Virus record (IMG/VR): IMGVR_UViG_3300009155_000035
DNA: 64,000 nt
Direction: 5' to 3' (one strand)
From: a virus
Lineage: Duplodnaviria > Caudoviricetes
Part shown: piece by piece, positions 5,221-49,193 of the stretch
How the letters are laid out: every line of letters starts with the position of its first letter
Position numbering within the stretch: the stretch's first letter is position 1
The notes under the pieces: model-generated
Databases searched by the model: none
What the model was told of the DNA's origin: nothing
The model's input: only the letters and a program-made list of their open reading frames with translations
Translations under genes and position numbers: made by a program

Positions 5221-7011
5221 ATGTCATGGAAGAAATATTTTAAAGTTGCCAATGCCGGTGGAGAGCTTAGTCCACTAAGCGGACGAGATGCGGATGGCTT
5301 GCCAGGGTACGGGCGCAATGACGGTCGAGATCCACTGAGAGGACATGCAGAAATTGCATATCGCAATTATGCCAGTCGGTTGCCCGAAGTTTACACAGGA
5401 CATCCAAACCGCGTTGCTCGATACAATCAATACGAACAAATGGACATGGACAGTGAAATCAATGCATGTCTTGACATTCTTGCTGAGTTCAGCACACAAG
5501 CAACCAAAGACGACAATGTTCCCTTCCAGGTTAACTACAATGATACCCCTACCGATAATGAAGTAAAAATTATCAAACAGCAGTTACAGCAGTGGGTCAA
5601 ACTCAACAAGCTAGATCAAAGAATTTTCCGTATCTTCCGTAACACACTCAAATATGGTGATCAAGTATTTGTGCGTGATCCAGAAACATTTGAAATGTAC
5701 TGGGTAGATATGACCAAGGTTGCCAGAGTTATTGTTAACGAATCCGAAGGCAAACGTCCTGAGCAGTACGTTATCCGTGACATTAATCCCAACTTTCAAA
5801 ATTTAACAGTAGCCGCAAAAACTACCACAGACTATCAGTCTAATCCGGGTACATCTGGATATGTTGCACCTTACAACTACACAGTGCCTGGCGCAGGTGG
5901 TGGCGGAGGTAGTGGTGGCGCAGGCGCCAGCAGATTCAATGCCGCAATGAACGAAACTGTGTTAGATGCCAAGCACGTAGTACATCTTAGTTTAACTGAA
6001 GGACTGGACTACTACTGGCCATTTGGCATGAGCATTTTAGAAACAATTTTCCGTGTGTTCAAGCAAAAAGAACTGCTGGAAGATTCTGTGTTAATCTATC
6101 GTGTTGCCCGTGCTCCAGAACGTCGTGTGTTTAAAATTGACGTGGGTAACATGCCGTCACACATGGCCATGGCCTTTGTTGAGCGTGTTAAAAACGAAAT
6201 TCACCAACGTAGAATCCCAAGTCACACTGGCGGTGGTAACAATATCATGGATAGCAGTTATAATCCATTGAGTATTAACGAAGATTACTTTTTCCCACAA
6301 ACAGCAGACGGTCGTGGTAGTAGCGTAGACACATTACCGGGTGGTGCTAATCTGGGCGAAATTGACGACTTAAAGTATTTTAACAACAAAATGTGCCGTG
6401 GTTTGCGTGTGCCCAGTAGCTATTTGCCCACAGGTCCAGATGACAGCGATCGCCCCATGAATGACGGTCGTGTAGGTACTGCGCTGATTCAAGAATATCG
6501 TTTTAACCAGTACTGCGAACGCTTACAACGTTTGGTTGTACAAAAACTTGATGACGAATTCAAAATGTTCATGCGTTGGAGAGGATTTAATATTGACAGT
6601 GGACTGTTCTCTATTAACTTTAATCCACCACAAAACTTTGCCAGCTATCGCGAAGCCGAACTTGATACCACTAGAGTAACCACTTTTAGTTCATTAGAAG
6701 CAGTTCCTTACTTGAGCAAGCGTTTCTTGTTAAAACGTTACTTAGGTCTTACTGAAGAAGAAATTCGTGAAAACGAAGAGCTGTGGGAAGAAGAACGTGG
6801 CGAACCAGAATTACCAGCACCAACAGGACAGGATTTACGTAGTGTTGGCGTTACTCCAGCTGATATTGAAAGTGATATCACAACAGGTGAAGACTTGTCA
6901 AATATTGGTGGCGCAGAAGCTGGGGCAGTGGGTGCACCACCCACTGGATCTCAACCAGCAGCCGGTGCAGGAGTATCGGCAGCAGCCAGTGCAACACCGC
7001 CAGCAGGATAA
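5221..7011 (+). CDS. Portal protein (T4 gp20-like)
   Basis: LED...IYR..RAPERRVF.IDVGNMP, EDYFFP, LPGG.NLG.IDD..YF..K....L.VP.S motifs. Confidence 0.95.
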   Translation: MSWKKYFKVANAGGELSPLSGRDADGLPGYGRNDGRDPLRGHAEIAYRNYASRLPEVYTGHPNRVARYNQYEQMDMDSEINACLDILAEFSTQATKDDNVPFQVNYNDTPTDNEVKIIKQQLQQWVKLNKLDQRIFRIFRNTLKYGDQVFVRDPETFEMYWVDMTKVARVIVNESEGKRPEQYVIRDINPNFQNLTVAAKTTTDYQSNPGTSGYVAPYNYTVPGAGGGGGSGGAGASRFNAAMNETVLDAKHVVHLSLTEGLDYYWPFGMSILETIFRVFKQKELLEDSVLIYRVARAPERRVFKIDVGNMPSHMAMAFVERVKNEIHQRRIPSHTGGGNNIMDSSYNPLSINEDYFFPQTADGRGSSVDTLPGGANLGEIDDLKYFNNKMCRGLRVPSSYLPTGPDDSDRPMNDGRVGTALIQEYRFNQYCERLQRLVVQKLDDEFKMFMRWRGFNIDSGLFSINFNPPQNFASYREAELDTTRVTTFSSLEAVPYLSKRFLLKRYLGLTEEEIRENEELWEEERGEPELPAPTGQDLRSVGVTPADIESDITTGEDLSNIGGAEAGAVGAPPTGSQPAAGAGVSAAASATPPAG

Positions 7012-7019
7012 ATATTTCT

Positions 7020-7238
7020 ATGAATTTATTTGAACTTTACGAAAGATCTCCTAGTGCGTACCAAGATGTTGCACAAGACAATAGCCAACCTCGTCTTGGG
7101 GATCTACGCAAAACAAAACTTACGTTAAGACAAATTAATAAATTACGCAAGCTCAATGATGTACGCAAGTATGAATTTAAAGAGCGTCTTAAAAGAGTAC
7201 AGAAGCAGTATTCACCACCACCTGAACCACTATCTTGA
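7020..7238 (+). CDS. Small basic hypothetical protein (head cluster)
   Basis: 72 aa. TAAATA at 7009-7014 lies 5 nt before the ATG. Confidence 0.7.
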   Translation: MNLFELYERSPSAYQDVAQDNSQPRLGDLRKTKLTLRQINKLRKLNDVRKYEFKERLKRVQKQYSPPPEPLS

Positions 7239-7297: not shown

Positions 7298-7325
7298 ACT
7301 GATATTTTGATAATATCAGTAAATA
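7298..7325 (+). promoter_or_regulatory. Inverted repeat abutting a late promoter
   Basis: ACTGATATT-ttgat-AATATCAGT (7298-7320), followed by TAAATA at 7320-7325. Confidence 0.55.
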
Positions 7326-7357: not shown

Positions 7358-8140
7358 ATGAATAAATTTGAACAGTTAGTTGAATACGTCATTAATGACG
7401 AAGCAGACAAAGCTCGTGAATTGTTTCACGAAATTGTTGTGGAGAAAAGTCGTTCTATCTATGAACAAATGATGGAAGACGAAGAGCTTGATGAAGCTAA
7501 AAACGACGAAGAGCTTGATGAAGCCAAAGACGAAGATTTAGATGAATCTGAAGAAGAACTTGACGAAGCCGACATGGGCGGAGATCAAGCTGATGATCTT
7601 ATCGATGACGTTGAAGTTGAAGAAGAAGGTCTCAGCATGGAAAGTGAAGAAGACGAATTTGCCGACGAAGAAGACGGCGAAGACGGAAATCTTGAAGACC
7701 GCGTTGTTGACCTAGAAGACCAACTTGACCAACTTATGTCAGAATTTGAAGCTCTAATGGGTGACGATGCTGAAGTTGATGGTGAGTTTGCAGCCGATGC
7801 AGCCGCTGGTATGGACGATGAAGAAATTGACGATACTGAGTTGGAAACTGAAGGCATGATGGAAAACGTCAGCTTAAAAGCAGTTCCAAAGCCAACAGCT
7901 GGCGATCACGGTGCCAACATCAAAAGCGTAGTAGCCGCTAACAGTGGCGCAAGAGGCGCAATGGCAAAGCCAGTTCGCCCAACAGGAACCGAAGCTCAAG
8001 GTCGTCCAGCCCCAACCGCTAAAGATGCAATTGGCAAGGTTGGTAACACCCCTGCTCAAAGCACACAAAAACCAACACCTGCTACTAAGCCACAATTAGG
8101 CCAGGCTGCTGGTGTGAACAGCAAAGCTGTTATTCAATAA
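7358..8140 (+). CDS. Acidic prohead core protein (gp67/gp68-like position)
   Basis: Start moved to ATG 7358 (GGAGG SD). Very Asp/Glu-rich with repeated LDE motifs. Lies between portal and protease. Confidence 0.7.
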   Translation: MNKFEQLVEYVINDEADKARELFHEIVVEKSRSIYEQMMEDEELDEAKNDEELDEAKDEDLDESEEELDEADMGGDQADDLIDDVEVEEEGLSMESEEDEFADEEDGEDGNLEDRVVDLEDQLDQLMSEFEALMGDDAEVDGEFAADAAAGMDDEEIDDTELETEGMMENVSLKAVPKPTAGDHGANIKSVVAANSGARGAMAKPVRPTGTEAQGRPAPTAKDAIGKVGNTPAQSTQKPTPATKPQLGQAAGVNSKAVIQ

Positions 8141-8151
8141 GGTCCCGGTAA

Positions 8152-8775
8152 ATGGCTCTTTACCTAAAAGAGAACTTGACTTTCGACGACGCTCGCATTA
8201 TTGTTGAGGGCGTCGAAGGTAAAGATCTTTATATGAAGGGCATCTGCATCCAGGGTGGTGTGCGTAATGCCAACGAGCGTGTATATCCAGTTGGCGAAAT
8301 TGAAAAAGCAGTTGGCACACTGAATGAACAAATTTCCAGCGGAAATTCAGTCTTGGGTGAAGTTGATCACCCCGATGATTTAAAAATTAATCTTGACCGT
8401 GTAAGCCATATGATGACAGAAATGTGGATGGATGGACCAAACGGTTATGGAAAATTAAAAATCCTACCAACACCAATGGGACAACTAGTGAGAACTATGT
8501 TGGAAAGTGGTGTTAAATTAGGTGTTTCAAGTCGCGGTAGCGGAAACGTTAACGAGGCTAACGGACATGTCAGTGATTTTGAAATAGTCACTGTGGATGT
8601 GGTTGCTCAGCCCAGCGCACCAAATGCATATCCAACTGCCATTTATGAAGGCATGATGAATATGAAGTATGGTCATCGTATGCTAGAGATAGCACGTGAT
8701 GCTGGCAATGACAACAAAGTGCAGAGATATTTGAAAAGCGAAATCAAAAAGCTTATCAAAGATCTCAAGATATGA
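8152..8775 (+). CDS. Prohead protease (T4 gp21-like)
   Basis: N.NERVYP, GEVDHP, LGVSSRGSG, D.V..PSAP.A motifs. Confidence 0.95.
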   Translation: MALYLKENLTFDDARIIVEGVEGKDLYMKGICIQGGVRNANERVYPVGEIEKAVGTLNEQISSGNSVLGEVDHPDDLKINLDRVSHMMTEMWMDGPNGYGKLKILPTPMGQLVRTMLESGVKLGVSSRGSGNVNEANGHVSDFEIVTVDVVAQPSAPNAYPTAIYEGMMNMKYGHRMLEIARDAGNDNKVQRYLKSEIKKLIKDLKI

Positions 8776-8789
8776 TTTAGGAGAAATCA

Positions 8790-9878
8790 ATGCTAGACGC
8801 AATTAAACCATTGCTAGATAGCGGCCTAATCAACGAGGACGTCAGCAAGGAACTCAACGAAGCTTGGGAATCTAAGTTGGTGGAGGCTCGTGAACAGGTA
8901 CGTGCAGAACTCCGTGAAGAGTTTGCACAACGTTATGAGCATGACAAAAGTGTGATGGTAGAAGCCCTAGATCGCATGGTAACAGACGGTCTTACACAAG
9001 AGATCCAGGCTGTGGCTGCTGAAAAGCAAGCACTAGCTGAAGATCGCGTTAAGTTCCAAGTCAAGATGAAAGAATCTGCTACAAAGTTTAACGACTTTAT
9101 GGTAGGAAAGCTTGCTGAGGAAATTGGCGAATTGCGTAAAGATCGTAAGATGCACAACGAATCCCTAGAAAAACTAGAAAAATTCGTTGTACGAGCTCTT
9201 GCAGAAGAAATTAGTGAATTTGCACAAGACAAAAAGGACTTGGTGGAAACCAAAGTTCGTCTAGTTAGCGAAGCACGTAATAAACTTGAAGGCTTGAAAG
9301 CACGTTTCGTCAAAGAAAGTGCAGACAAGATGAGCAAAGCTGTTAGCCAGCATCTAAAAACAGAACTTACACAACTTCATGAAGACATCAAAATTGCTCG
9401 CGAGAACAGTTTTGGTCGTCGTATTTTTGAAGCTTACGCTGCCGAATTTGGTGCAACTCATCTCAATGAGAACGCAGAAGTTCGCAAGCTCAAGAAAGTT
9501 CTGGTAGCCAAAGATCATCAGCTTAGTGAAGCTACCCGTATTGTTCAACAGGCAAAAACTCTTGTTGAATCTAAGGACCGTGAGATTCGCGTGATCAAAG
9601 AATCCAATGAACGTGCAAACGTCATGGAAGAATTGTTGGCTCCTCTTAATGAAGAGAAGCAAGCAGTCATGAAGAATCTTTTGGAAAGCGTACAGACTTC
9701 TCGTCTTAAAAACGCTTATGAAAAGTATCTACCAGCCGTACTTACAGACACAGCACCAAAAGCTCGCAAGGTAATTAGTGAGAGTGTTAGTGTAGTAACT
9801 GGTGATAAAACCGTGCCAGCCGCGCAAGTTGAAGACCGCAGTAATGTGATCGACATCAAACGTCTGGCTGGTCTATAA
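8790..9878 (+). CDS. Prohead scaffolding protein (T4 gp22-like)
   Basis: Charged coiled-coil between protease and capsid genes. SD AGGAGA. Confidence 0.85.
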   Translation: MLDAIKPLLDSGLINEDVSKELNEAWESKLVEAREQVRAELREEFAQRYEHDKSVMVEALDRMVTDGLTQEIQAVAAEKQALAEDRVKFQVKMKESATKFNDFMVGKLAEEIGELRKDRKMHNESLEKLEKFVVRALAEEISEFAQDKKDLVETKVRLVSEARNKLEGLKARFVKESADKMSKAVSQHLKTELTQLHEDIKIARENSFGRRIFEAYAAEFGATHLNENAEVRKLKKVLVAKDHQLSEATRIVQQAKTLVESKDREIRVIKESNERANVMEELLAPLNEEKQAVMKNLLESVQTSRLKNAYEKYLPAVLTDTAPKARKVISESVSVVTGDKTVPAAQVEDRSNVIDIKRLAGL

Positions 9879-9903: not shown

Positions 9904-11121
9904 ATGTCACAAGAACTATTAGAAGGCCGTTGGGACGAGACCAAAGAAGCATTGCTCGAAGGACTCAAAGGAAACCGACGCAACTCTATGAACGTAATTC
10001 TCGAAAATACTCGCAAGTATCTTCGTGAAAATGCCAGCGCAGGATCTACTGTATCTGGTAACATCGCTACATTAAACCGTGTGATTCTTCCAGTGATTCG
10101 TCGTGTTATGCCGACTGTTATCGCTAACGAAATCGTTGGTGTTCAGCCAATGACTGGCCCAGTCGGCCAAATTCACACACTACGTGTACGTTATGCATCT
10201 ACAATGACTGACCAAACAGCAGCCGCTACTTCTGTAGTTGCTGGTGAAGAAGCATTATCTCCATTCAAGATCGCTGTTGCATACTCTGCTGGCGCCCGTG
10301 GTGCTGACAACGCTGCCACTACACAGACAGCCGCTCAAGGCTACGCTGGTGGTGCTACTGCTACCCTAGAAGGTAATGGTGGTCGTCAGATCTCTGTACA
10401 AATCTTGAAACAAGCTGTTGAAGCCAAGACTCGCAAGTTGCAAGCTCGTTGGACATTTGAAGCCGCTCAAGATGCACAAGCCATGCACGGTATTGATGTT
10501 GAAGCAGAAATTATGGCTGCTTTGGCTCAAGAAATCACAGCTGAAATTGACCAAGAGATTCTCTTGTCTCTACGCAGTCTAGCTCAAACTGAGTTTACAT
10601 ACAACCAAGCTACCGTTTCTGGTACAGCTACATTCGTTGGTGATGAGCATGCCGCATTGGCTGTTCTAGTTAACCGTGTTGCTAACTTGATCGCCCAACG
10701 TACACGTCGTGGCGCCGGTAACTGGGCTGTTGTTAGCTCTGCCGCTTTGACAGTGTTGCAATCTGCAACTACTTCTGCTTTTGCTCGCACTACAGAAGGT
10801 ACTTTTGAAGCACCTACAAACACCAAGTTTGTTGGTACATTGAACGGTGCAATGCGTGTGTTTGTTGACTCTTATGCATCTGACTCAACACCTGTGTTGG
10901 TTGGTTACAAAGGTTCTAGCGAAGCTGACGCAGCCGCTTTCTACTGCCCATACATTCCGTTGATGAGCAGTGGTGTTGTTCTTGATCCAACAACATTCGA
11001 ACCAGTTGTGTCATTCATGACACGTTACGGTTACATTGAGTTGACAAACACTGCCAGCTCATTCGGTAACGCTGGTGACTATGTTGGCGAGATCGCTGTA
11101 CAGAACTTGTCTTTCTCCTAA
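9904..11121 (+). CDS. Major capsid protein (T4 gp23-like)
   Basis: RRVMP..IA..IVGVQPMTGP.GQI, VEAKTRKL.A.WT.E.AQD, FYCPYIPL, TRYG motifs. SD AAGGAGA. Confidence 0.97.
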   Translation: MSQELLEGRWDETKEALLEGLKGNRRNSMNVILENTRKYLRENASAGSTVSGNIATLNRVILPVIRRVMPTVIANEIVGVQPMTGPVGQIHTLRVRYASTMTDQTAAATSVVAGEEALSPFKIAVAYSAGARGADNAATTQTAAQGYAGGATATLEGNGGRQISVQILKQAVEAKTRKLQARWTFEAAQDAQAMHGIDVEAEIMAALAQEITAEIDQEILLSLRSLAQTEFTYNQATVSGTATFVGDEHAALAVLVNRVANLIAQRTRRGAGNWAVVSSAALTVLQSATTSAFARTTEGTFEAPTNTKFVGTLNGAMRVFVDSYASDSTPVLVGYKGSSEADAAAFYCPYIPLMSSGVVLDPTTFEPVVSFMTRYGYIELTNTASSFGNAGDYVGEIAVQNLSFS

Positions 11122-38289: not shown

Positions 38290-38325
38290 TAGCAGGTAAA
38301 TAAACATATACAGGAGATAAAACAT

Positions 38326-40938: not shown

Positions 40939-41442
40939 ATGACAAGAAAACTCGAAGAACTTTTCAACATCGAATCTCCCAGTCCCGATGGCATACTTGA
41001 TAGCCCAGACAGCGAACCTGGAAATGATATCGAGAAGAATTTGCCAGTACTCCCGGAAACTTTGGTGGCCCTTGACAAGATAGAGTCAGCATTGCCTGCG
41101 GTCCGGGGTCTTGAAGCCAGTGACGCTGAAATGGATGATTTGGCAACCAAGGCAACTGAAAGCTTTGACAATCTCATGGACCTTGGCATGCAAGTTGACA
41201 GTAGATATGCCAGTGAAATTTTTGCTGTGGCCGGCGCTATGCTAGGACATGCTATCACTGCCAAGACAGCCAAGATGAATAAGAAACTCAAAATGATTCA
41301 GTTGCAATTACAAAAAGCAAAACTGGATCAAACCAATGAAACAGATCCTACTCCAACTGCTCAAGGTCGTGTATTAGATCGTAATGAATTACTAAAGCAC
41401 TTGGTACAGCGGAGTACTGAAAACCCCAACAGCGGTAAATAA
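40939..41442 (+). CDS. Putative terminase small subunit (T4 gp16-like)
   Basis: Helical with a central hairpin-like segment and C-terminal DRNELLK.L. About 167 aa. Upstream of TerL. Confidence 0.55.
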   Translation: MTRKLEELFNIESPSPDGILDSPDSEPGNDIEKNLPVLPETLVALDKIESALPAVRGLEASDAEMDDLATKATESFDNLMDLGMQVDSRYASEIFAVAGAMLGHAITAKTAKMNKKLKMIQLQLQKAKLDQTNETDPTPTAQGRVLDRNELLKHLVQRSTENPNSGK

Positions 41443-41459
41443 CATATAGGATTAGTCAC

Positions 41460-42059
41460 ATGAAAACATTTGCACAATATCTCACAGAAAGTGAAAAAAC
41501 CTTTGATTATCGCATTAAAATATGCGGTGATGTGCCCTCAGACTTTGTTAACTCTCTGAAAGAAAAACTTAAAAAGTTTGATCCAGTAAAGATCTCTGAA
41601 CCAAAGAAAACTCCAATTCAGTCTAAGCCAATTGACTTTCCGTCTTTCACAAACGAACCTGTAACTATCATCGATGGCACATTTCGTTATCCAGCCACTC
41701 CTCCACAAATTCAACAAATGGTTCGTTTGTTAGGTATGGATGAGAATCGTGTGTGCATTAACGAGTTGCAGTGGAGTGAAGGCATGGACAAAGAGTTGTT
41801 GGGTATTGCCGACCAAAAGGATTTGTTAGTTAGTGACTATCCAGCTGACAATGCTGAACAGAAAGCACTCTCAAAAGATTATGCCGCTCCTGCCGCTGAC
41901 AAAGAAGTAGTTAAAAACTCGGCTGCCGATGCCAAGTTCACTATTGCTGGTGGCAAGACACCCCCAGCAGAAACCACAAACAATTTACCGCAGGGCGTTA
42001 AGAGTCCAATGACAACGGTCAAACGTCCGCCTAAGCCAGCAACCGGCCTCCAGAAATAA
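41460..42059 (+). CDS. Putative prohead-targeted internal protein
   Basis: N-terminus MKTFAQYLTE resembles the T4 capsid-targeting sequence. Confidence 0.55.
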   Translation: MKTFAQYLTESEKTFDYRIKICGDVPSDFVNSLKEKLKKFDPVKISEPKKTPIQSKPIDFPSFTNEPVTIIDGTFRYPATPPQIQQMVRLLGMDENRVCINELQWSEGMDKELLGIADQKDLLVSDYPADNAEQKALSKDYAAPAADKEVVKNSAADAKFTIAGGKTPPAETTNNLPQGVKSPMTTVKRPPKPATGLQK

Positions 42060-42069
42060 GGAAACAACA

Positions 42070-44268
42070 ATGACATTTTTTTACGACTTAAACAAAAAGC
42101 TTAGTGATTTGGCCGCTAAACAAACACTCACCGAAGCCGCTAGCCATCAAGCTAAAACTACAATGAAGCATGTTAATGCTAGTGATGCTTCTCCTAAAGT
42201 AAAAGCCGCAATTGGCAAGGCAGCCAAAGACATCAAGCCAGGCATCCAAGGTTACAGAGACAGAGCGGCTGCATTGACTGCTGCCGGAGTCAAAGAAGAT
42301 GACATGGGCGAAGGCAATGAATTTTCAGGTCAACTAGCCCGGGCCAAAGCTTCTGGTGCTAAATCATTTAATGTTGATGGCAAAGAGTATCCAGTCAAAG
42401 AAGGCTCCACTGGTGATTACTCGGCCAAAAAAGCCCGGGCTGGTAAAGACATTGGAAAGCCCGGCAAAGCATTTGCTAAGATTGCTAAATCAGCAGGCGA
42501 AAAATATGGTAGCAAAGCACGTGGTGAAAAAGTTGCCGGCGCTGTGTTGGCAAAGTTACGTGCCAAAGAAAGCATTGAAGAAACACAAAACCCCAATGTT
42601 GGTCAGGTGTTAAAAAACTTTTCGCGTGATGTTAAAGACTTTCAATCCAGTGGCGAGTTGAGTGATAACTTGTACAGTGCATTGTTTGACGTGTGGTCAT
42701 CTGAAATGCCATATGGTACTGCAAAAGCACGCACTGGTGATCCATATCAGTGGATCTCTCAGAAACTGAATCAAGAATTAGGCATGAGTGAAGGTGTTGA
42801 CAAACAAGCATTTGCCGCGCTGGCACCTCCGCGAGACAAGATTACATTTGCTGACAAAATTGCTGGGGCCAAAAAAGAAGTTGACGAAATGCTTGGAGAT
42901 GTTGCTGCCGAAGCAATGAAGGCAGCATTAGGCAAAGGTAAAAAGATTGTTGCTGACGAAAGCAGAGATGATGACGATGACGTCTATACCTATCAAGATC
43001 CTGCAAAGAAGAAAACATATAAAACTGCATCCGGTGGTACAGTAACACACCATGGCAATGTTACACGCCATCAAGCGGCGCCCGGGCGTTACGGTGGCTA
43101 TGATCCAGAATCTCATCCAGACAAGGATGACGATAAGCCCGGAACACCTGACGGTGAAAAGCGTGGCAAAGGGCGTCCAAAAGGAACAGGTAAGAGTCTT
43201 GGCGCCAAAGGGCCAAGCGGTAAGTCTAAATTAATGACTCGAGAAGGCGAAGTAAGTACAGGTAATTTGCAAAAAATGCATCAGTTAGTTACTGGCTTAA
43301 AATTGTATATTCAAGACGAAGACGGCAAGGCAGCTCTTAAAGAGCTAACTGCGTTAATCAAGCATTATGTGAACCAAGGTGGCGAACAAGAACTAGACGA
43401 AGAGCAACTTGATGAGCTATCAAAGGATACATTAAAGAGTTATATTGATAAAGCTGCTACTCGTTTAGTTAGCGGCGACAAGTATAAGGGCATGGATAGA
43501 TATAATAGAGTTGATGGTATTAAAAAAGCAACTTCTAAGCTTGTTAAACAAGAAGAAACAGAACAAACTGATGAAGTCATGTCAAGAAAACAAAAAGATG
43601 CCGCAGTTCGTAATTTTATGTCGCATGATCCAGAAGCTGGTGAAAAAATTCTTGCTATGGGCAAGAAAGATGCAGAAGACTTTGCATCAACCAAGCACAA
43701 AGGCCTACCAGAAAAGAAAGCCAAGAAAAAAGAAGATGTAGAAGAAACTACAACTTCGGGCAGTGTAGCTGTTGCACCTGCTGGCGGCAAAACAAAAGCA
43801 AATGGCATTTTTGGTAAGAGTGTTTATGAAAATAAATTAGCCGAAAGCTTCAACAACAAGTTAAACGCTGTGCTGTCTGAAGGCATGAGTATTAACATGA
43901 GCGTTGGTGAAGATGGAACCAAATCCTTGACAGTCAACGCCACAAACGAAGATGCTGAACAACTAGCACAATTGCTTAAAATGGCCGGACTAGGTGGTGA
44001 AGGTGGTGCACAAGCTTGCTCTACATGCGGTGAATCTGCATGTGGTTGCGAACAAATGTCCGAAGGTGAATTAGCCAACAGCCCTGAGCCAGGATACAGT
44101 GATACTGACACCATGGTCAACACATTAAGCGGCGGATTAAATGGTCGTAAAGATACTGGACAAACAGTAGGAGCTCCGTTTAACCGTCAGTCTGCTCGCC
44201 AAGGCCCAGGCATTGCCGAAAACAAAGAAGCAGAACTTTGGAAAATTTACTCACGATATTCAAAATGA
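42070..44268 (+). CDS. Low-complexity putative internal head polyprotein
   Basis: 732 aa of charged modules separated by (L/V/I/M)-x-E motifs. Confidence 0.55.
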   Translation: MTFFYDLNKKLSDLAAKQTLTEAASHQAKTTMKHVNASDASPKVKAAIGKAAKDIKPGIQGYRDRAAALTAAGVKEDDMGEGNEFSGQLARAKASGAKSFNVDGKEYPVKEGSTGDYSAKKARAGKDIGKPGKAFAKIAKSAGEKYGSKARGEKVAGAVLAKLRAKESIEETQNPNVGQVLKNFSRDVKDFQSSGELSDNLYSALFDVWSSEMPYGTAKARTGDPYQWISQKLNQELGMSEGVDKQAFAALAPPRDKITFADKIAGAKKEVDEMLGDVAAEAMKAALGKGKKIVADESRDDDDDVYTYQDPAKKKTYKTASGGTVTHHGNVTRHQAAPGRYGGYDPESHPDKDDDKPGTPDGEKRGKGRPKGTGKSLGAKGPSGKSKLMTREGEVSTGNLQKMHQLVTGLKLYIQDEDGKAALKELTALIKHYVNQGGEQELDEEQLDELSKDTLKSYIDKAATRLVSGDKYKGMDRYNRVDGIKKATSKLVKQEETEQTDEVMSRKQKDAAVRNFMSHDPEAGEKILAMGKKDAEDFASTKHKGLPEKKAKKKEDVEETTTSGSVAVAPAGGKTKANGIFGKSVYENKLAESFNNKLNAVLSEGMSINMSVGEDGTKSLTVNATNEDAEQLAQLLKMAGLGGEGGAQACSTCGESACGCEQMSEGELANSPEPGYSDTDTMVNTLSGGLNGRKDTGQTVGAPFNRQSARQGPGIAENKEAELWKIYSRYSK

Positions 44269-45083
44269 GAACATTTAAAGACTACTTGACAGACGCTGAA
44301 CAGCAGAATCCCTGTGTAGGTGATTCTGTTGGCATTGAAATAGGGTTTGAGGACATTATCGAAACTTACGTAGTTGATGTGTTTGAAGATGCTGTGGTAA
44401 TTGAAAGCGACAGCACAACTTTACAACTACTTGAGAGTGCAGGATGTAAATTTGAAACAATAAGACGCTACGGTCCTGCAGGCAACAACAATGCCATGGG
44501 CTGGAGTGTAGCCGAAGATCAAGATGCGACTGTGCTAGCCCAAAAAGAAATAGCAACAGACATCACAAATCCTATGCCCGGGGTACATGAATCAGAGCAC
44601 GAATCTGGCGAGTACGACTACGAAGGCGACATGGCCAAGGATGACTTGCATACTATAATCCGTGCCGCACGAAAACTAACTGGCATGTTGGATGACAATG
44701 AAAACATGCCAGAGTGGGTACAGTCAAAAATCAACAAGGCAGCTGACTATGTTGACACTGCGGCTGACTACATAGAGTCAAACAAAGAACAAGACGAAAT
44801 TGACTTAGACGAAGCTGAATATCAAGGTCGTAAAGTTCCTTTAGGCAAGCCAATGCGTGGTGATGTAAAGAAATTCAAAGTTTATGTCAAAGATCCCAGT
44901 ACTGGTAATATTAAAAAAGTAAGCTTTGGTCATGGTGGTTCCAGTGCAAAACGTGCTGGCCAAAAAACTATGAAAATTAAAAAGTCAGATCCGGCACGTC
45001 GACGTAGTTTTAGAGCTCGGCACAATTGCGATAACCCAGGACCAAGAACAAAAGCACGATACTGGTCATGCCGTGCCTGGTAA
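44265..45083 (+). CDS. Putative internal head protein with a basic C-terminal module
   Basis: Starts MRTFKDYLTDAE. LDE|AEYQGRKV...RRRSFRARHNC...RYWSCRAW. Confidence 0.6.
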   Translation: MRTFKDYLTDAEQQNPCVGDSVGIEIGFEDIIETYVVDVFEDAVVIESDSTTLQLLESAGCKFETIRRYGPAGNNNAMGWSVAEDQDATVLAQKEIATDITNPMPGVHESEHESGEYDYEGDMAKDDLHTIIRAARKLTGMLDDNENMPEWVQSKINKAADYVDTAADYIESNKEQDEIDLDEAEYQGRKVPLGKPMRGDVKKFKVYVKDPSTGNIKKVSFGHGGSSAKRAGQKTMKIKKSDPARRRSFRARHNCDNPGPRTKARYWSCRAW

Positions 45084-45098
45084 AAGGAAAACAACAAC

Positions 45099-45380
45099 AT
45101 GAGTCAAGCAAACGTTTATACATCGGCTAGTAGCCAAGCCTGGTACACTGACAAGGCAAGAATATCCACAGGCACAAACACTGTAACTTACAATGTAAAT
45201 TTGTTGTACGGGCCTGCAACAGGAAATTTGTATTCAAATCCAATACAAATTCCAGCAAACAATCGCGTCACAGTATGGGTAGGAGTTGGCAACCAACTAA
45301 CAGTCACAGGTGGAAATGTTACTATACAAGAAGTAGGAACAGCAAGTTCGGGACAAGTTGGCGTTTGGCAGCCGGAGTAA
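45099..45380 (+). CDS. Small beta-rich hypothetical protein
   Basis: 93 aa, SD AAGGA. Confidence 0.65.
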   Translation: MSQANVYTSASSQAWYTDKARISTGTNTVTYNVNLLYGPATGNLYSNPIQIPANNRVTVWVGVGNQLTVTGGNVTIQEVGTASSGQVGVWQPE

Positions 45381-45383
45381 TTG

Positions 45384-45755
45384 ATGCGAGCTAATGAGTT
45401 TGTAACCGAGGACAAAGTTGGCAAGATTGGCAAGCGTCGACAGGTGGCCACACGTGGATTAAACAAATTCCGTGATAACCAATTTGCTGACAGGGTGTAT
45501 GAACTCAATCGTATCATGATGGCAGTAGCTTCTACTGACGGTACTACTGTGCCTGATATGGACAGTGAGTCATGGAGTGGGCGCAACAACGTGGCTGCTC
45601 CTTATACTGAAGTTGAGCAACGCATGCTTGAAAAAGCTTTCAAGGCCATAGGGTCAAAACATTGGGATCTAAATCACGGTGACATGGACAGTGAAGAAGT
45701 TAATTCAACTAATAAACAAAGTCCCGTGATGAGTTTCAAAGGCTATCCCCGATGA
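45384..45755 (+). CDS. Putative internal protein, paralog A
   Basis: Starts MRANEFVTE, ends SPVMSFKGYPR. Confidence 0.65.
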   Translation: MRANEFVTEDKVGKIGKRRQVATRGLNKFRDNQFADRVYELNRIMMAVASTDGTTVPDMDSESWSGRNNVAAPYTEVEQRMLEKAFKAIGSKHWDLNHGDMDSEEVNSTNKQSPVMSFKGYPR

Positions 45756-46141
45756 GAGCACGTGAATTCGTCACAGAACAAGCCGCCCAATTGCCGGCCG
45801 AGCAAGCCGATCCCATGCGTTACACTTACGTAGTTCCTGGTCTCAGTGCCGCTGACCCATACCGCAATTATAGATTTGGTGTTGCTCTAGCTCGAGCAAG
45901 AAGCGAAGCTGTAAAAGATGATGTAAACCCCGACATTCCTGCATGGCATGATGAAACTGCGTTTGGCGAGCATGGCATTGTTGCTGGCATGACGCCAGGT
46001 ATTGATAAACTTATTGATGCCGCATTGACAATGACAAAAACACCAGGTGGTAAAAAAATGGTGTCAAGTGGCCCCAGTGAAGAACCCAAATCAGTAGATA
46101 CAAAAAGTCCTGTAAAGGCATTCAAAGGATACCCAAGGTAA
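45752..46141 (+). CDS. Putative internal protein, paralog B
   Basis: Starts MRAREFVTE, ends SPVKAFKGYPR. Confidence 0.65.
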   Translation: MRAREFVTEQAAQLPAEQADPMRYTYVVPGLSAADPYRNYRFGVALARARSEAVKDDVNPDIPAWHDETAFGEHGIVAGMTPGIDKLIDAALTMTKTPGGKKMVSSGPSEEPKSVDTKSPVKAFKGYPR

Positions 46142-46147
46142 AATATT

Positions 46148-47146
46148 ATGGCAAACACACCACCACCATATGAAAACATCACCGGCATAAGCCGTACAGT
46201 GATGAAAGACAATGCTCAAGAGACTTTGGCAAATTATGATGGCAATGCTAGACCAGGCGAACTTGTAGTAAATCTTGAAACAGATCCGCCGTTGTTATAT
46301 GTAGGTAACAACGTTGGTCAATTGACCCTGGTGGCATCAGCTGTTGCAACAACCTGGGCTACATTGGGCGATAAAAACAATGCCAGTGGTCCTAGTAAGA
46401 TAGCCCTGGGAACCAATGCTGGCATTGTTCAAGGTAACTTCTCAGTGGCCATTGGCTACGCGGCCGGCAACGCACAAGGCATAGATACAGTGGCCATTGG
46501 TACGCAGGCTGGAGCCGCGTCACAAGGCAATAATGCAGTGGCTGTTGGTGTGCGTTCTGCTGTAACCTCACAAGGTGTTGGCGCGGTAGCAGTTGGAAAT
46601 AATGCCGGATATAGCACCCAAGGTATAAATTCAGTAGCCGTTGGCAGTCGGGCTGGTGAAACCCTTCAGGGTGAAAATGCAGTGGCTATTGGTGCAATTG
46701 CTGGATTAACCAATCAAGGTATCAATGCAGTGGCCGTAGGCTATGGTGCCGGGGGACAAGGAAACAACACAATAGCCATTGGTACGCAGGCCGGATCCTC
46801 GTCACAAGGTACTCAATCAGTGGCTATTGGTCAAAATGCCGGCTTAACTTCACAAGGTACTCAAGCAGTGGCCATTGGAACAGGTGCAGCCGAAACAGGA
46901 CAAGGTAACTATTCAGTAGCTGTTGGCTACCTTGCTGGTCGCACCTCACAAGCCAACAATTCAATCATTATAAACGCTACAAACGCCAACTTGAATCAAA
47001 CCACTGCCAACACATTCACAGTGAAACCTGTGCGAGCAGTGACCAGTGTGACTTTTGCCGCACCCACTGCAGGCTCAATACCTGCAGGTTTTTCACCAGT
47101 ATACTACAATCCCACTACTGGTGAACTCATTGTGATCACACCTTAG
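46148..47146 (+). CDS. YadA-head-like beta-roll repeat fibre protein
   Basis: About 13 repeats of ~14 aa, QG..AVA(I/V)G..AG. Confidence 0.75.
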   Translation: MANTPPPYENITGISRTVMKDNAQETLANYDGNARPGELVVNLETDPPLLYVGNNVGQLTLVASAVATTWATLGDKNNASGPSKIALGTNAGIVQGNFSVAIGYAAGNAQGIDTVAIGTQAGAASQGNNAVAVGVRSAVTSQGVGAVAVGNNAGYSTQGINSVAVGSRAGETLQGENAVAIGAIAGLTNQGINAVAVGYGAGGQGNNTIAIGTQAGSSSQGTQSVAIGQNAGLTSQGTQAVAIGTGAAETGQGNYSVAVGYLAGRTSQANNSIIINATNANLNQTTANTFTVKPVRAVTSVTFAAPTAGSIPAGFSPVYYNPTTGELIVITP

Positions 47147-47156
47147 AAATACCCAT

Positions 47157-47594
47157 ATGAAAAAAATACTCTTACTCTTACTCATTGTACCATGCCTAGT
47201 TATGGCACAACCCAAACAAAAACCTGGTGTGACATATGATGCTGTGATTACCCGTGTAATTGACGGAGACACAGTGGGAATTCAAGCAACTTGGTTACCC
47301 GCACCACTCAAACCTGAACTCAGCATTAGAGTTTTTGGTGTCGATACTCCTGAAAAAGGATTCCGCGCTCAGTGCCCCAGTGAAGCTCAACGTGGGGAAG
47401 CAGCCACAGCATTTACCAAACAAGCAATTGCCAATGCACAACAGCGACAAATTGTGCTCATGGACTGGGACAAGTATGGCGGCCGTGTGTTAGGCGATGT
47501 GTTACTGAACGGCCAGAGCCTACGTGGCATGCTGATTGCCAACGGTTTTGCCCGTGAATACTACGGCGAAGCCAAAACTAGTTGGTGTAATTGA
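47157..47594 (+). CDS. Thermonuclease (SNase-like) with signal peptide
   Basis: MKKILLLLLIV signal, then VIDGDT, IR..GVDTPE, DKYGGR.LG, L..NG.AR.Y. Confidence 0.92.
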   Translation: MKKILLLLLIVPCLVMAQPKQKPGVTYDAVITRVIDGDTVGIQATWLPAPLKPELSIRVFGVDTPEKGFRAQCPSEAQRGEAATAFTKQAIANAQQRQIVLMDWDKYGGRVLGDVLLNGQSLRGMLIANGFAREYYGEAKTSWCN

Positions 47595-47627: not shown

Positions 47628-49193
47628 ATGCCCGCAGTTACCGAAACAGCTTTAATTAAAAGTCCATACTCTTCAACAGTTTACACTTATGAACAAATTG
47701 AAGAGTTTGCCAAGTGCGCTGACCCCCTTGCTGGTCCAGAGTACTTCATGGACAACTTCTTCTATATTCAACACCCCACACGTGGTAGAATGTTATACCA
47801 CCCATTTGAATACCAAAAACGGCTGATATATACCTATCACAACTATCGTTTCAGCATCTCAATGATGCCTCGACAAACAGGTAAGTCAACATCGGCAGCC
47901 GGTTACTTACTATGGTACGCAATGTTTGTTCCAGACTCAACAATTTTAGTTGCCGCACACAAGTACACTGGATCCCAGGAAATTATGCAACGTATTCGGT
48001 ATGCCTACGAAAGCGTTCCAGATCACATCAGAGCTGGTGTAACCAGTTACAACAAAGGTAACTTGGACTTTGATAATGGCAGTCGTATTGTATCGGCCAC
48101 AACAACAGAAAATACCGGTCGTGGTATGTCTATCTCACTGTTATACGCTGACGAATTTGCGTTTGTGCGACCTACAATTGCATCCGAATTTTGGACTTCT
48201 ATTAGTCCTACTCTGGCAACTGGTGGTAAAGCTATTATTACATCAACTCCTAACAGTGACGAAGATCAATTTGCGCTGTTATGGAAAGGCGCTAACCGCT
48301 GTGAAGATGAATTTGGTAATCCCACCCAAGTTGGAGTAAACGGATTTAAAGCGTATAGAAGTTACTGGAACGAACATCCTGATCGTGATGACACCTGGGC
48401 CGCACAGCAAAGAGCCGCACTTGGTGTAGATCGATTCCGTCGAGAAATGGACTGTGAGTTCATTATTGCTGACGAAACACTTATTGCTCCAGCCAAGTTA
48501 TTTGACCTGCAAGGACAAGATCCTTTGTACAAAACTGGTGAAGTTCGTTGGTACAAGAAGCCCCAGCGAGATAGAATCTATGTTGTTGCATTGGATCCCA
48601 GTTTAGGTACTGGCGGTGATCCAGCAGCCATACAGGTATTTGAAGCAGATTCAACTGAACAAGTTGCCGAGTGGAGACACAACCGCAGTGACATCCCCAC
48701 ACAAGTTAGAACCCTGGCAGACATTGTTCGACACATCAACGACATAGTAAAAGACCCCAAAAGCATTTATTACAGTGTGGAAAACAACACCATTGGCGAA
48801 GCAGCCTTGATATCCATTGCTGAGTACGGGGAAAAGAACATACAGGGTTACTTTTTAAGCGAGCCAGGCAACAACGGCGGTCGTAGATACCGCAAAGGAT
48901 TTAATACAACAAACAAGCCCAAGCTAGCAGCCTGTGCAAAAATCAAGCATTTGATAGAATCTAACAAGATGAAAATCAACAGTGCTCCGCTGGTTGGTGA
49001 ATTAAAAAATTTTGTGGCAACTGGTGCAGGTTATGCCGCAAAACCAGGGGAAACAGACGACTTGGTGATGTCAACATTACTAATTGTGCGTATGATGCAA
49101 TTATTGCAAAGTTATCACCCAGATCTTGATGAACACATGCGTGATCACCAGGATAGTTTGATTGAACCTTTGCCATTTGTTATGACCATGTAA
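47628..49193 (+). CDS. Terminase large subunit (T4 gp17-like)
   Basis: Walker A PRQTGKST, Walker B YADEFAF, ITSTPN, nuclease D in LDPSLG.GGD, DDLVMS. Confidence 0.96.
   Translation: MPAVTETALIKSPYSSTVYTYEQIEEFAKCADPLAGPEYFMDNFFYIQHPTRGRMLYHPFEYQKRLIYTYHNYRFSISMMPRQTGKSTSAAGYLLWYAMFVPDSTILVAAHKYTGSQEIMQRIRYAYESVPDHIRAGVTSYNKGNLDFDNGSRIVSATTTENTGRGMSISLLYADEFAFVRPTIASEFWTSISPTLATGGKAIITSTPNSDEDQFALLWKGANRCEDEFGNPTQVGVNGFKAYRSYWNEHPDRDDTWAAQQRAALGVDRFRREMDCEFIIADETLIAPAKLFDLQGQDPLYKTGEVRWYKKPQRDRIYVVALDPSLGTGGDPAAIQVFEADSTEQVAEWRHNRSDIPTQVRTLADIVRHINDIVKDPKSIYYSVENNTIGEAALISIAEYGEKNIQGYFLSEPGNNGGRRYRKGFNTTNKPKLAACAKIKHLIESNKMKINSAPLVGELKNFVATGAGYAAKPGETDDLVMSTLLIVRMMQLLQSYHPDLDEHMRDHQDSLIEPLPFVMTM

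Follow-up and report, generated by a model that had tools for sequence, protein, structure and literature searches.

Leader-tagged, probably head-internal proteins encoded upstream of the large terminase gene in an uncultured jumbo myophage

Our analyses of the IMG/VR virus record IMGVR_UViG_3300009155_000035 (Duplodnaviria; Caudoviricetes), represented by a stretch of 64,000 nucleotides that is referred to throughout as the window, indicate that the operon at positions 41460-46141 quite probably encodes a set of leader-tagged internal head (prohead-core) proteins, which would be trimmed by the prohead protease. Five of its products, those of the genes starting at 41460, 42070, 44265, 45384 and 45752, appear to carry an N-terminal address peptide of the type of the capsid-targeting sequence (CTS) of phage T4, and are most likely packed into the capsid. 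Sequence comparison assigns the window to a Rak2/PA5oct-like jumbo myophage that has not been cultured; the mechanism, already known from T4, is not itself new and is extended here to a large new phage group. An earlier, sequence-only reading of this DNA had taken the operon for a prohead cassette led by CTS-like peptides and trimmed at (L/I/V)-x-E. The sequence tests reported here support that core idea, through the occurrence of leaders on unrelated bodies, selection at the level of the peptide, agreement with the functional positions of the T4 CTS, the presence of a gp21-type protease and a scaffold, and the mass spectrometry (MS) records of phage PA5oct.

The CTS of T4 is borne by IPI, IPII, IPIII and Alt and is removed by gp21. 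Its hallmark is the use of a single address peptide on unrelated cargo, enzymes included, and, to our knowledge, nearly all that has been learned about it comes from T-even phages. A peptide that is nearly identical and shares the functional positions is found here in distant and very abundant uncultured freshwater jumbo phages, in which one cargo protein has more than 2000 metagenomic homologues and contigs reach ~350 kb. On the analogy of T4, the leader, a short helix, would bind the scaffolding core during prohead assembly, so that the protein would become enclosed; the gp21-type serine protease encoded at 8152-8775 would then cut after the Glu of (L/I/V)-x-E, and the mature protein would be set free within the head and stay with the DNA. 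It is from this analogy that core binding, cleavage, retention and ejection are all proposed. The set of head-packaged proteins of such phages becomes predictable from sequence, the GNAT proteins of relatives become candidates for injected enzymes, and the results suggest that T4-style protein-packaging vectors are conceivable in jumbo phages, which offer a far larger head volume.

Leader peptides and their conservation

The leaders, their conservation, their modular use on unrelated bodies, and the genes for a protease and a scaffold are seen directly in the sequence. When the open reading frames (ORFs) were re-read, four N-termini given in the sequence-only reading were borne out (MKTFAQYLTE at 41460, MRTFKDYLTDAE at 44265, MRANEFVTE at 45384 and MRAREFVTE at 45752), as was an early LTE in gene 42070, located at residues 20-22. 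The five genes, all on the plus strand, were assigned to families. Family I (41460-42059; leader at 41460-41489) is a protein of 199 aa whose ferredoxin-like core is followed by a disordered C-terminal region, and family II (42070-44268) is a Lys-rich, low-complexity protein of 732 aa whose leader, MTFFYDLNKKL...LTE, spans 42070-42135. Family III (44265-45083) has 272 aa, while families Va (45384-45755, 123 aa; leader at 45384-45410) and Vb (45752-46141, 129 aa; leader at 45752-45778) are distant paralogues with 29% identity. ATGA stop-start overlaps join 42070 to 44265 (44265-44268) and 45384 to 45752 (45752-45755), and the Va/Vb overlap (YPR stop, MRA start) is kept in many relatives. The same interval also holds a conserved gene without a leader, family IV (45099-45380, plus strand, 93 aa), and the genes at 46148 and 47157 lie between the operon and the gene for the large terminase (TerL).

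A strict motif scan of all ATG, GTG and TTG starts on both strands of the window matched just four starts, 41460, 44265, 45384 and 45752. The same four were retrieved, out of 442 ATG starts followed by at least 60 codons on either strand, with a generic pattern (M..[FYWL]..[FYW][LIVM].[ED], or one residue shorter). Three classes of leader can be distinguished. Leader B, in families I and III, reads M-K-x-F-x-x-Y-L-x-E (M-K/R-T-F-x-x-Y-L-T-E/D in the window genes) and is in the register of the T4 leaders, which we read from NC_000866 as MKTYQEFIAE (IPII and IPIII) and MKTFKEFTSTTTPVSTITE (IPI). Leader A, in the paralogues Va and Vb, reads M-R-A-x-E-F-[ILV]-x-E; it is one residue shorter and has E-F-[IV]-x-E in common with T4. 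Leader C, in family II, runs M-x-F-F-Y-D-L-N-K-K-L...(L/I)-x-E over 20-27 residues. As in T4, the tag is N-terminal and comprises 9-12 residues, or ~20 in a long form such as that of IPI; M-R-A-R-E-F-V-T-E and M-K-T-F-A-Q-Y-L-T-E of the window stand against M-K-T-Y-Q-E-F-I-A-E of T4, and in both cases the tag ends in (L/I/V)-x-E, heads unrelated mature parts and is accompanied by an S77 protease with its His and Ser and by a scaffold in gp22 position. Unlike T4, the window has three leader classes instead of one, and loading and cutting are predicted here from the genes.

A search with TerL yielded 597 related IMG/VR stretches, from which 80 loci with TerL 71-88% identical were kept. Their open frames were searched by BLAST with the window proteins deprived of their first 14 residues (25 for 42070), and the N-termini were inspected only afterwards. 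All 30 homologues retrieved with the leader-less family I query start M-[KN]-x-[FL]-x-x-Y-[LI]-x-E; when the 30 relatives are aligned, M1, Y7 and E10 never change and K2, F4 and L8 hardly do. Similarly, nearly all homologues of Va and Vb start M-R-A-x-E-F-[ILVM]-x-E. Across the family V alignment (72 sequences, mean identity 37%), M1, A3, F6 and E9 are invariant and position 7 is I, V, L or M, and among 25 orthologues of Va the invariant residues are M1, R2, A3, E5, F6 and E9 together with S113, F118, G120 and Y121. Five family V variants lack E9, and all of them have (L/I)-x-E four residues later. An [LI]xE lies within residues 10-40 in 24 of 25 distinct family II homologues, where 23% would be expected from the density of the motif elsewhere in the proteins, and relatives of family III have E at position 10. 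The N-termini, whose lack of conservation would have spoken against the sequence-only reading, are therefore conserved among homologues, in 30 of 30 cases for family I and in nearly all for family V.

These patterns can be compared with experimental work on T4, where gp21 cleaves after L/I-X-E, residues 4 and 7 of the IPIII CTS control targeting and residues 8 and 10 control processing, and an Asp at CTS position 10 blocks processing while leaving targeting intact (PMC9026906). It is at these functional positions (4, 7, 8 and 10) that family I is most conserved. Gene 44265 is an exception to the (L/I)-x-E ending, with Asp10 where its relatives carry Glu; because of this Asp, and by analogy with the T4 CTS, its product may be loaded and yet remain uncut at the leader. 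AlphaFold2 (AF2) models of Vb and of family I place the leader outside the fold, as an N-terminal helix of low confidence (for Vb, pLDDT 63 in the leader block and 85.6 overall).

Common descent or gene conversion might also produce shared N-termini, or the conserved starts might have a role at the level of DNA or RNA, as in translation initiation or as recombination sites. Va and Vb are indeed true paralogues, and the leader genes all belong to one tight, partly ATGA-coupled operon. However, the leader codons vary synonymously, Ala3 being written in four codons and Glu5, Phe6 and Glu9 each in both of theirs. As the synonymous sites vary freely, selection acts on the leader peptide rather than on DNA or RNA, and the fixation of the amino acids in the face of such abundant variation largely refutes this explanation. 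It is further contradicted by the retention of the Glu and of the hydrophobic residue two before it even where the site shifts by four residues, and by the unrelatedness of the bodies of families I, III and V: families I and III have only residues 1-13 in common, and hhalign of family I against family V gave a probability of 1.8%. Moreover, the same leader occurs on GNAT proteins ~150 kb away in relatives, and we regard a common origin or a nucleic acid signal as the least probable of the explanations weighed here.

The evidence from these distant copies comes from three near-complete relatives (317-340 kb, 89-98% complete; G001-G003), which were scanned with a DNA pattern for leader A. The pattern occurs 3-4 times in each, always in coding orientation, whereas its reversed form, used as a control, does not occur at all. 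The extra copies, far from the cassette, head GNAT proteins of 314 and 335 aa (Pfam Acetyltransf_1, 44.7 and 26.2 bits; cut-off 20.7), a protein of 193 aa and basic peptides of 65-67 aa. This second leader-A locus (L087:2856-6907, L088:3070-5322 and L089:3052-3249) contains double-GNAT proteins, the 193-aa protein, basic peptides of 65-72 aa and the leader-like starts MRFSEFVAE and MRSDEFISE, and it adjoins proteins of ~950 aa with an Amidoligase_2 domain.

Head module and the predicted fate of the tagged proteins

The head module of the window follows the T4 order of portal, gp67-like gene, protease, scaffold-like gene and Gp23-family major capsid protein. Its prohead protease (8152-8775, plus strand; Peptidase S77), the presumed processing enzyme, is of the gp21 type: it scores 93.6 bits against Pfam PF03420 (cut-off 27), matches the T4 gp21 structure PDB 5JBL with an E value of 3.9e-14, and aligns directly with T4 gp21 at the catalytic His (GEVDHP) and Ser (GVSSRG). 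The next gene (8790-9878, plus strand), in the position of gp22 and followed by that of the major capsid protein, encodes a scaffold-like core protein, the presumed docking partner of the leaders. Its sequence contains L-x-E 13 times against 4.9 expected and I-x-E 6 times against 1.9 expected (19 against 6.8 for [LI]-x-E in total), with no enrichment of S-x-E or A-x-E, although coiled-coil periodicity could partly explain this excess.

Vb has no (L/I/V)-x-E beyond its leader, and Va has a single further one, a V-x-E. The combination of site-poor Va and Vb with a scaffold rich in [LI]-x-E is in keeping with a protease that spares the cargo and degrades the scaffold. A different fate is conceivable, in which the leader proteins would be accessories of the prohead core or scaffold, comparable to T4 gp67, gp68 or gp22, that are loaded likewise and then degraded or expelled instead of being delivered to the host. 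Such accessories would account for the cassette being conserved and syntenic in the manner of structural genes, and for the composition of family II, which is long, of low complexity and contains [LI]xE 9 times against 4.9 expected (z 2.0), as well as of family I (4 against 1.5 expected); the excess in family II is just mild for the idea of a protease-punctuated polyprotein encoded by gene 42070. The gp67-like gene of the head module also has a leader-like start, MNKFEQLVE. On the other hand, the scarcity of sites in Va and Vb looks as if these proteins were meant to survive the protease, PA5oct gp202 and gp203 are recorded in mature virions, and a leader on the GNAT enzymes of relatives would be pointless were the cargo destroyed. 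An accessory role with subsequent destruction consequently seems unlikely to us, and the retention of the mature proteins within the head remains the reading that we prefer.

The Vb fold had no match in PDB, BFVD or a VIA-wide search, save one member of its own family in BFVD. The AF2 model of family I (pLDDT 69) consists of the leader helix, a ferredoxin/S6/ACT-like core (Z ~8) and a disordered C-terminal third; a function derived from this core was discarded as uninformative, the fold being a generic one. A complex of the tandem, ATGA-coupled paralogues Va and Vb was predicted with a score of 0.09 against a mark of 0.32, which weighs neither for nor against binding.

Several further features of the head module were recorded. 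The portal gene (5221-7011) is followed by one for a small protein of 72 aa with the N-terminus MNLFELYE (7020-7238), just ahead of the gp67-like acidic protein. The latter was called from a TTG at 7307 and extends to 8140; a more likely start is the ATG at 7358, from which the product would show, besides its leader-like N-terminus, a long acidic tail and a resemblance to T4 gp67. The major capsid protein (9904-11121) has its Gp23 domain from residue 54 and is ~65% identical to its counterparts in PA5oct (Pseudomonas), 2.275.O (Vibrio) and Phosso (Sinorhizobium), and ~63% identical to those of the GAP32/CBB group. Its N-terminus, MSQELLEGRWDETKEALLEG (9904-9963), contains L-L-E twice before the Gp23 domain (residues 5-7 and 17-19), and the two motifs are candidate propeptide cleavage sites. 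The window further encodes sheath, tube, neck and recombination genes.

Cultured relatives, conservation of the cassette and known systems

The record of Pseudomonas phage PA5oct (Arenbergviridae) marks gp202, gp203, gp205 and gp206, products of neighbouring genes, as structural proteins by electrospray ionization tandem mass spectrometry (ESI-MS/MS). Among these, gp202 (EST35_0202) is homologous to family I over its first 100 residues, with 32% identity, and gp203 is the positional counterpart of family II, with the leader MFNINDILRLAGVQAVKE. Leaders, processing and internal proteins are not mentioned in the PA5oct paper, and we found no literature linking the Rak2/PA5oct group with a CTS. 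In Vibrio phage 2.275.O, gp386 starts MKDLNTILTE. PA5oct, 2.275.O, Phosso and Agrobacterium phage Atu_ph07 all resemble the window in having a head-completion gene, a gene resembling that of the small terminase (TerS-like), family I, a long low-complexity protein and TerL; they differ from it in that the interval holds 2-5 genes and neither Va nor Vb. A probable role can thereby be assigned to proteins annotated as hypothetical or structural in cultured relatives, namely PA5oct gp202 and gp203 and 2.275.O gp386.

Some of these comparisons count against the packaging and trimming of the cassette proteins. PA5oct gp202 (MKSFRDYYDAS) and Phosso gp408 (MKNFYEYLSS) keep F4 and Y7 and have lost Glu10, so cleavage is not universal, and the conserved N-terminus of family I could in part be an ordinary structural feature of the family. 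Family V lacks a cultured counterpart, as no homologue of Vb was found among isolated phages. The cassette also does not show the hypervariable gene content of the T4 ip hot spot, a point in which the T4 ip genes differ. As to gp202 and gp408, retention of F4 and Y7 with loss of the Glu is what would be expected if targeting and cutting were separable.

The mature parts of the cassette proteins likewise show no likeness in sequence or fold to IPI, IPII and IPIII: only the leader aligns (hhalign probability 8%; BLAST), in agreement with the sequence-only reading, and the Vb model is without a PDB match. A C-terminal tail shared by families I and V is a further difference from T4. The T4 ip loci are hypervariable, and their products inhibit GmrSD restriction enzymes (PMC12373910). 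Whereas those loci are scattered, the window genes form one conserved, syntenic cassette between the TerS-like gene and TerL. In ~30 loci whose sequence reaches far enough upstream, the genes run in the order TerS-like, I, II, (III), IV, Va, Vb, variable genes, TerL; what varies is the presence of family III (in about half of the loci), the copy number of family V (1-4) and the gene content of the stretch separating Vb from TerL. In its degree of conservation Vb is close to TerL itself, with 93%, 85% and 77% identity where TerL has 88%, 84% and 83%. Because they are syntenic and well conserved, the core genes are read as standing components of the head interior and not as fast-evolving anti-defence factors, and the earlier suggestion that they might be injected effectors or anti-defence factors is not borne out for the core. 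The leader-tagged GNAT enzymes of relatives would be better candidates for effectors directed at the host than the core genes.

A second point of comparison is provided by the phiKZ-like giants (201phi2-1, phiKZ and SPN3US), in which many head-internal proteins are cut after Glu by a protease related to gp21 (PMC9026906). These phages cut at S/A/G-x-E and do not have a short common N-terminal address peptide, whereas the window has the hydrophobic-x-E motif of T4 and head genes of the T4 gp20-gp23 type.

Shared C-terminal tail and neighbouring genes

A basic C-terminal tail, K-S-P-[VM]-x-x-[FVI]-K-[GR]-x-P-[RK], is common to families I, Va and Vb, and within the window the corresponding regular expression matches these three ORFs only, every one of them bearing a leader. 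The tail reads SPMTTVKRPPK in family I (42003-42035, plus strand), where S182 and P183 are invariant, SPVMSFKGYPR in Va (45720-45752) and SPVKAFKGYPR in Vb (46106-46138); family V has an invariant ...SPVxxFKGYPR at the extreme C-terminus. Across the 80 loci, the tail was found near the end of 100 of 5351 distinct open frames, 98 of which also have the leader, a co-occurrence that is to be taken as a lead rather than as a statistic because only two or three protein families are involved. At 8 residues upstream of the family V tail, S-x-E is invariant, and the Pro that comes after it is nearly so. This S-x-E was considered as a second cleavage site of the phiKZ type and rejected, given that S-x-E and A-x-E are not enriched in the scaffold and that the next residue is Pro.

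The tail resembles what we take to be SPKK-type motifs of the DNA minor groove, and binding to DNA or to the portal is possible. We tentatively put forward, as a rather doubtful proposal, that the proteins bear two address labels, a leader that would load them and then be removed, and a tail that would hold the protein, once mature, on the packaged DNA or at the portal channel and govern its exit with the genome. If this were true, leader and tail would together define a predictable 'injectome' for this entire clade of lake jumbo phages, and the GNAT acetyltransferases that bear the leader in relatives would belong to it.

That families I and V possess such a tail shows more than one signal in these proteins, which could be in keeping with the leader being a recognition tag for a machine other than the prohead, such as a modifying enzyme or an export system. 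Nevertheless, Pfam and PHROG scans revealed no radical-SAM enzyme or other candidate maturase in or beside the cassette, the genes lie among late head and packaging genes, and the tag equals the T4 CTS at E-F-I-x-E and ends in the cleavage motif of gp21. A destination other than the prohead is, on these grounds, very improbable.

The sequence-only reading had placed the operon between the small and large terminase genes. The large terminase is confirmed (47628-49193, plus strand; Pfam Terminase_6N and Terminase_6C), but the identity of the small terminase is only tentative. The cassette begins directly downstream of the gene concerned (40939-41442, plus strand), whose true start is at ~40939 and whose relatives have the N-terminus MTRKLEELF. 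Its product matches phrog_16202 (E 1.4e-10) and phrog_445, 'terminase small subunit' (E 0.0016); Pfam and PDB searches gave no match, and the comparison with T4 gp16 by hhalign was not significant (E 0.48). We tentatively identify it as TerS.

Pfam and PHROG scans assigned no functional names to the cassette proteins, apart from a weak 'virion structural protein' for family I and PHROGs of unknown function. The 2030 metagenomic homologues of Vb carry neither names nor Pfam domains, and its neighbours in the ESM Atlas were uninformative. Family IV, with homologues in 43 of the 80 loci, has the N-terminus M(S/A)QANVYTS and no (L/I)xE leader, and was without a match in Pfam and PHROG scans. The C-terminal ~95 aa of family III (44805-45083) match phrog_7595, a domain that is fused behind the leader here and stands alone in phages of Pelagibacter, Roseobacter, Flavobacterium and Methylophilales and in a Nitrosopumilaceae virus. 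Residues 112-172 of the same product match cyanophage S-H9-1, and residues ~95-170 match family II proteins of relatives. When the DNA of the region was searched against isolated phages, the sole match was one of 65 nt (43663-43727, inside gene 42070), 81.5% identical to a hypothetical gene of the cyanophage Synechococcus phage S-WAM1. The matches to S-WAM1, S-H9-1 and family II suggest that modules have been shuffled.

Regarding expression, the T4 late promoter TATAAATA is not enriched within the window. A motif, GGTAAATAA(A)CATATA..AGGA, was noticed both at 38295-38325, before the tail-tube gene, and at 41434-41459, before gene 41460, and a TAAATA upstream of family I is kept in relatives. 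The shared motif is possibly a late promoter that drives high expression of family I.

Two genes separate Vb from TerL, both on the plus strand. The first (46148-47146) encodes a protein of 332 aa with YadA head repeats (Pfam YadA_head, 50.5 bits; weak matches to tail-spike PHROGs) and is found in only 20 of the 80 loci. Possibly it is a gene for a fibre or whisker that entered the packaging operon by insertion. The second (47157-47594), located just before TerL, encodes an SNase homologue (Pfam SNase, 39.3 bits) with the Sec-type signal peptide MKKILLLLLIVPCLVMAQP; homologues occur in 29 of the 80 related loci, and the product may act as a phage nuclease in the periplasm or after secretion.

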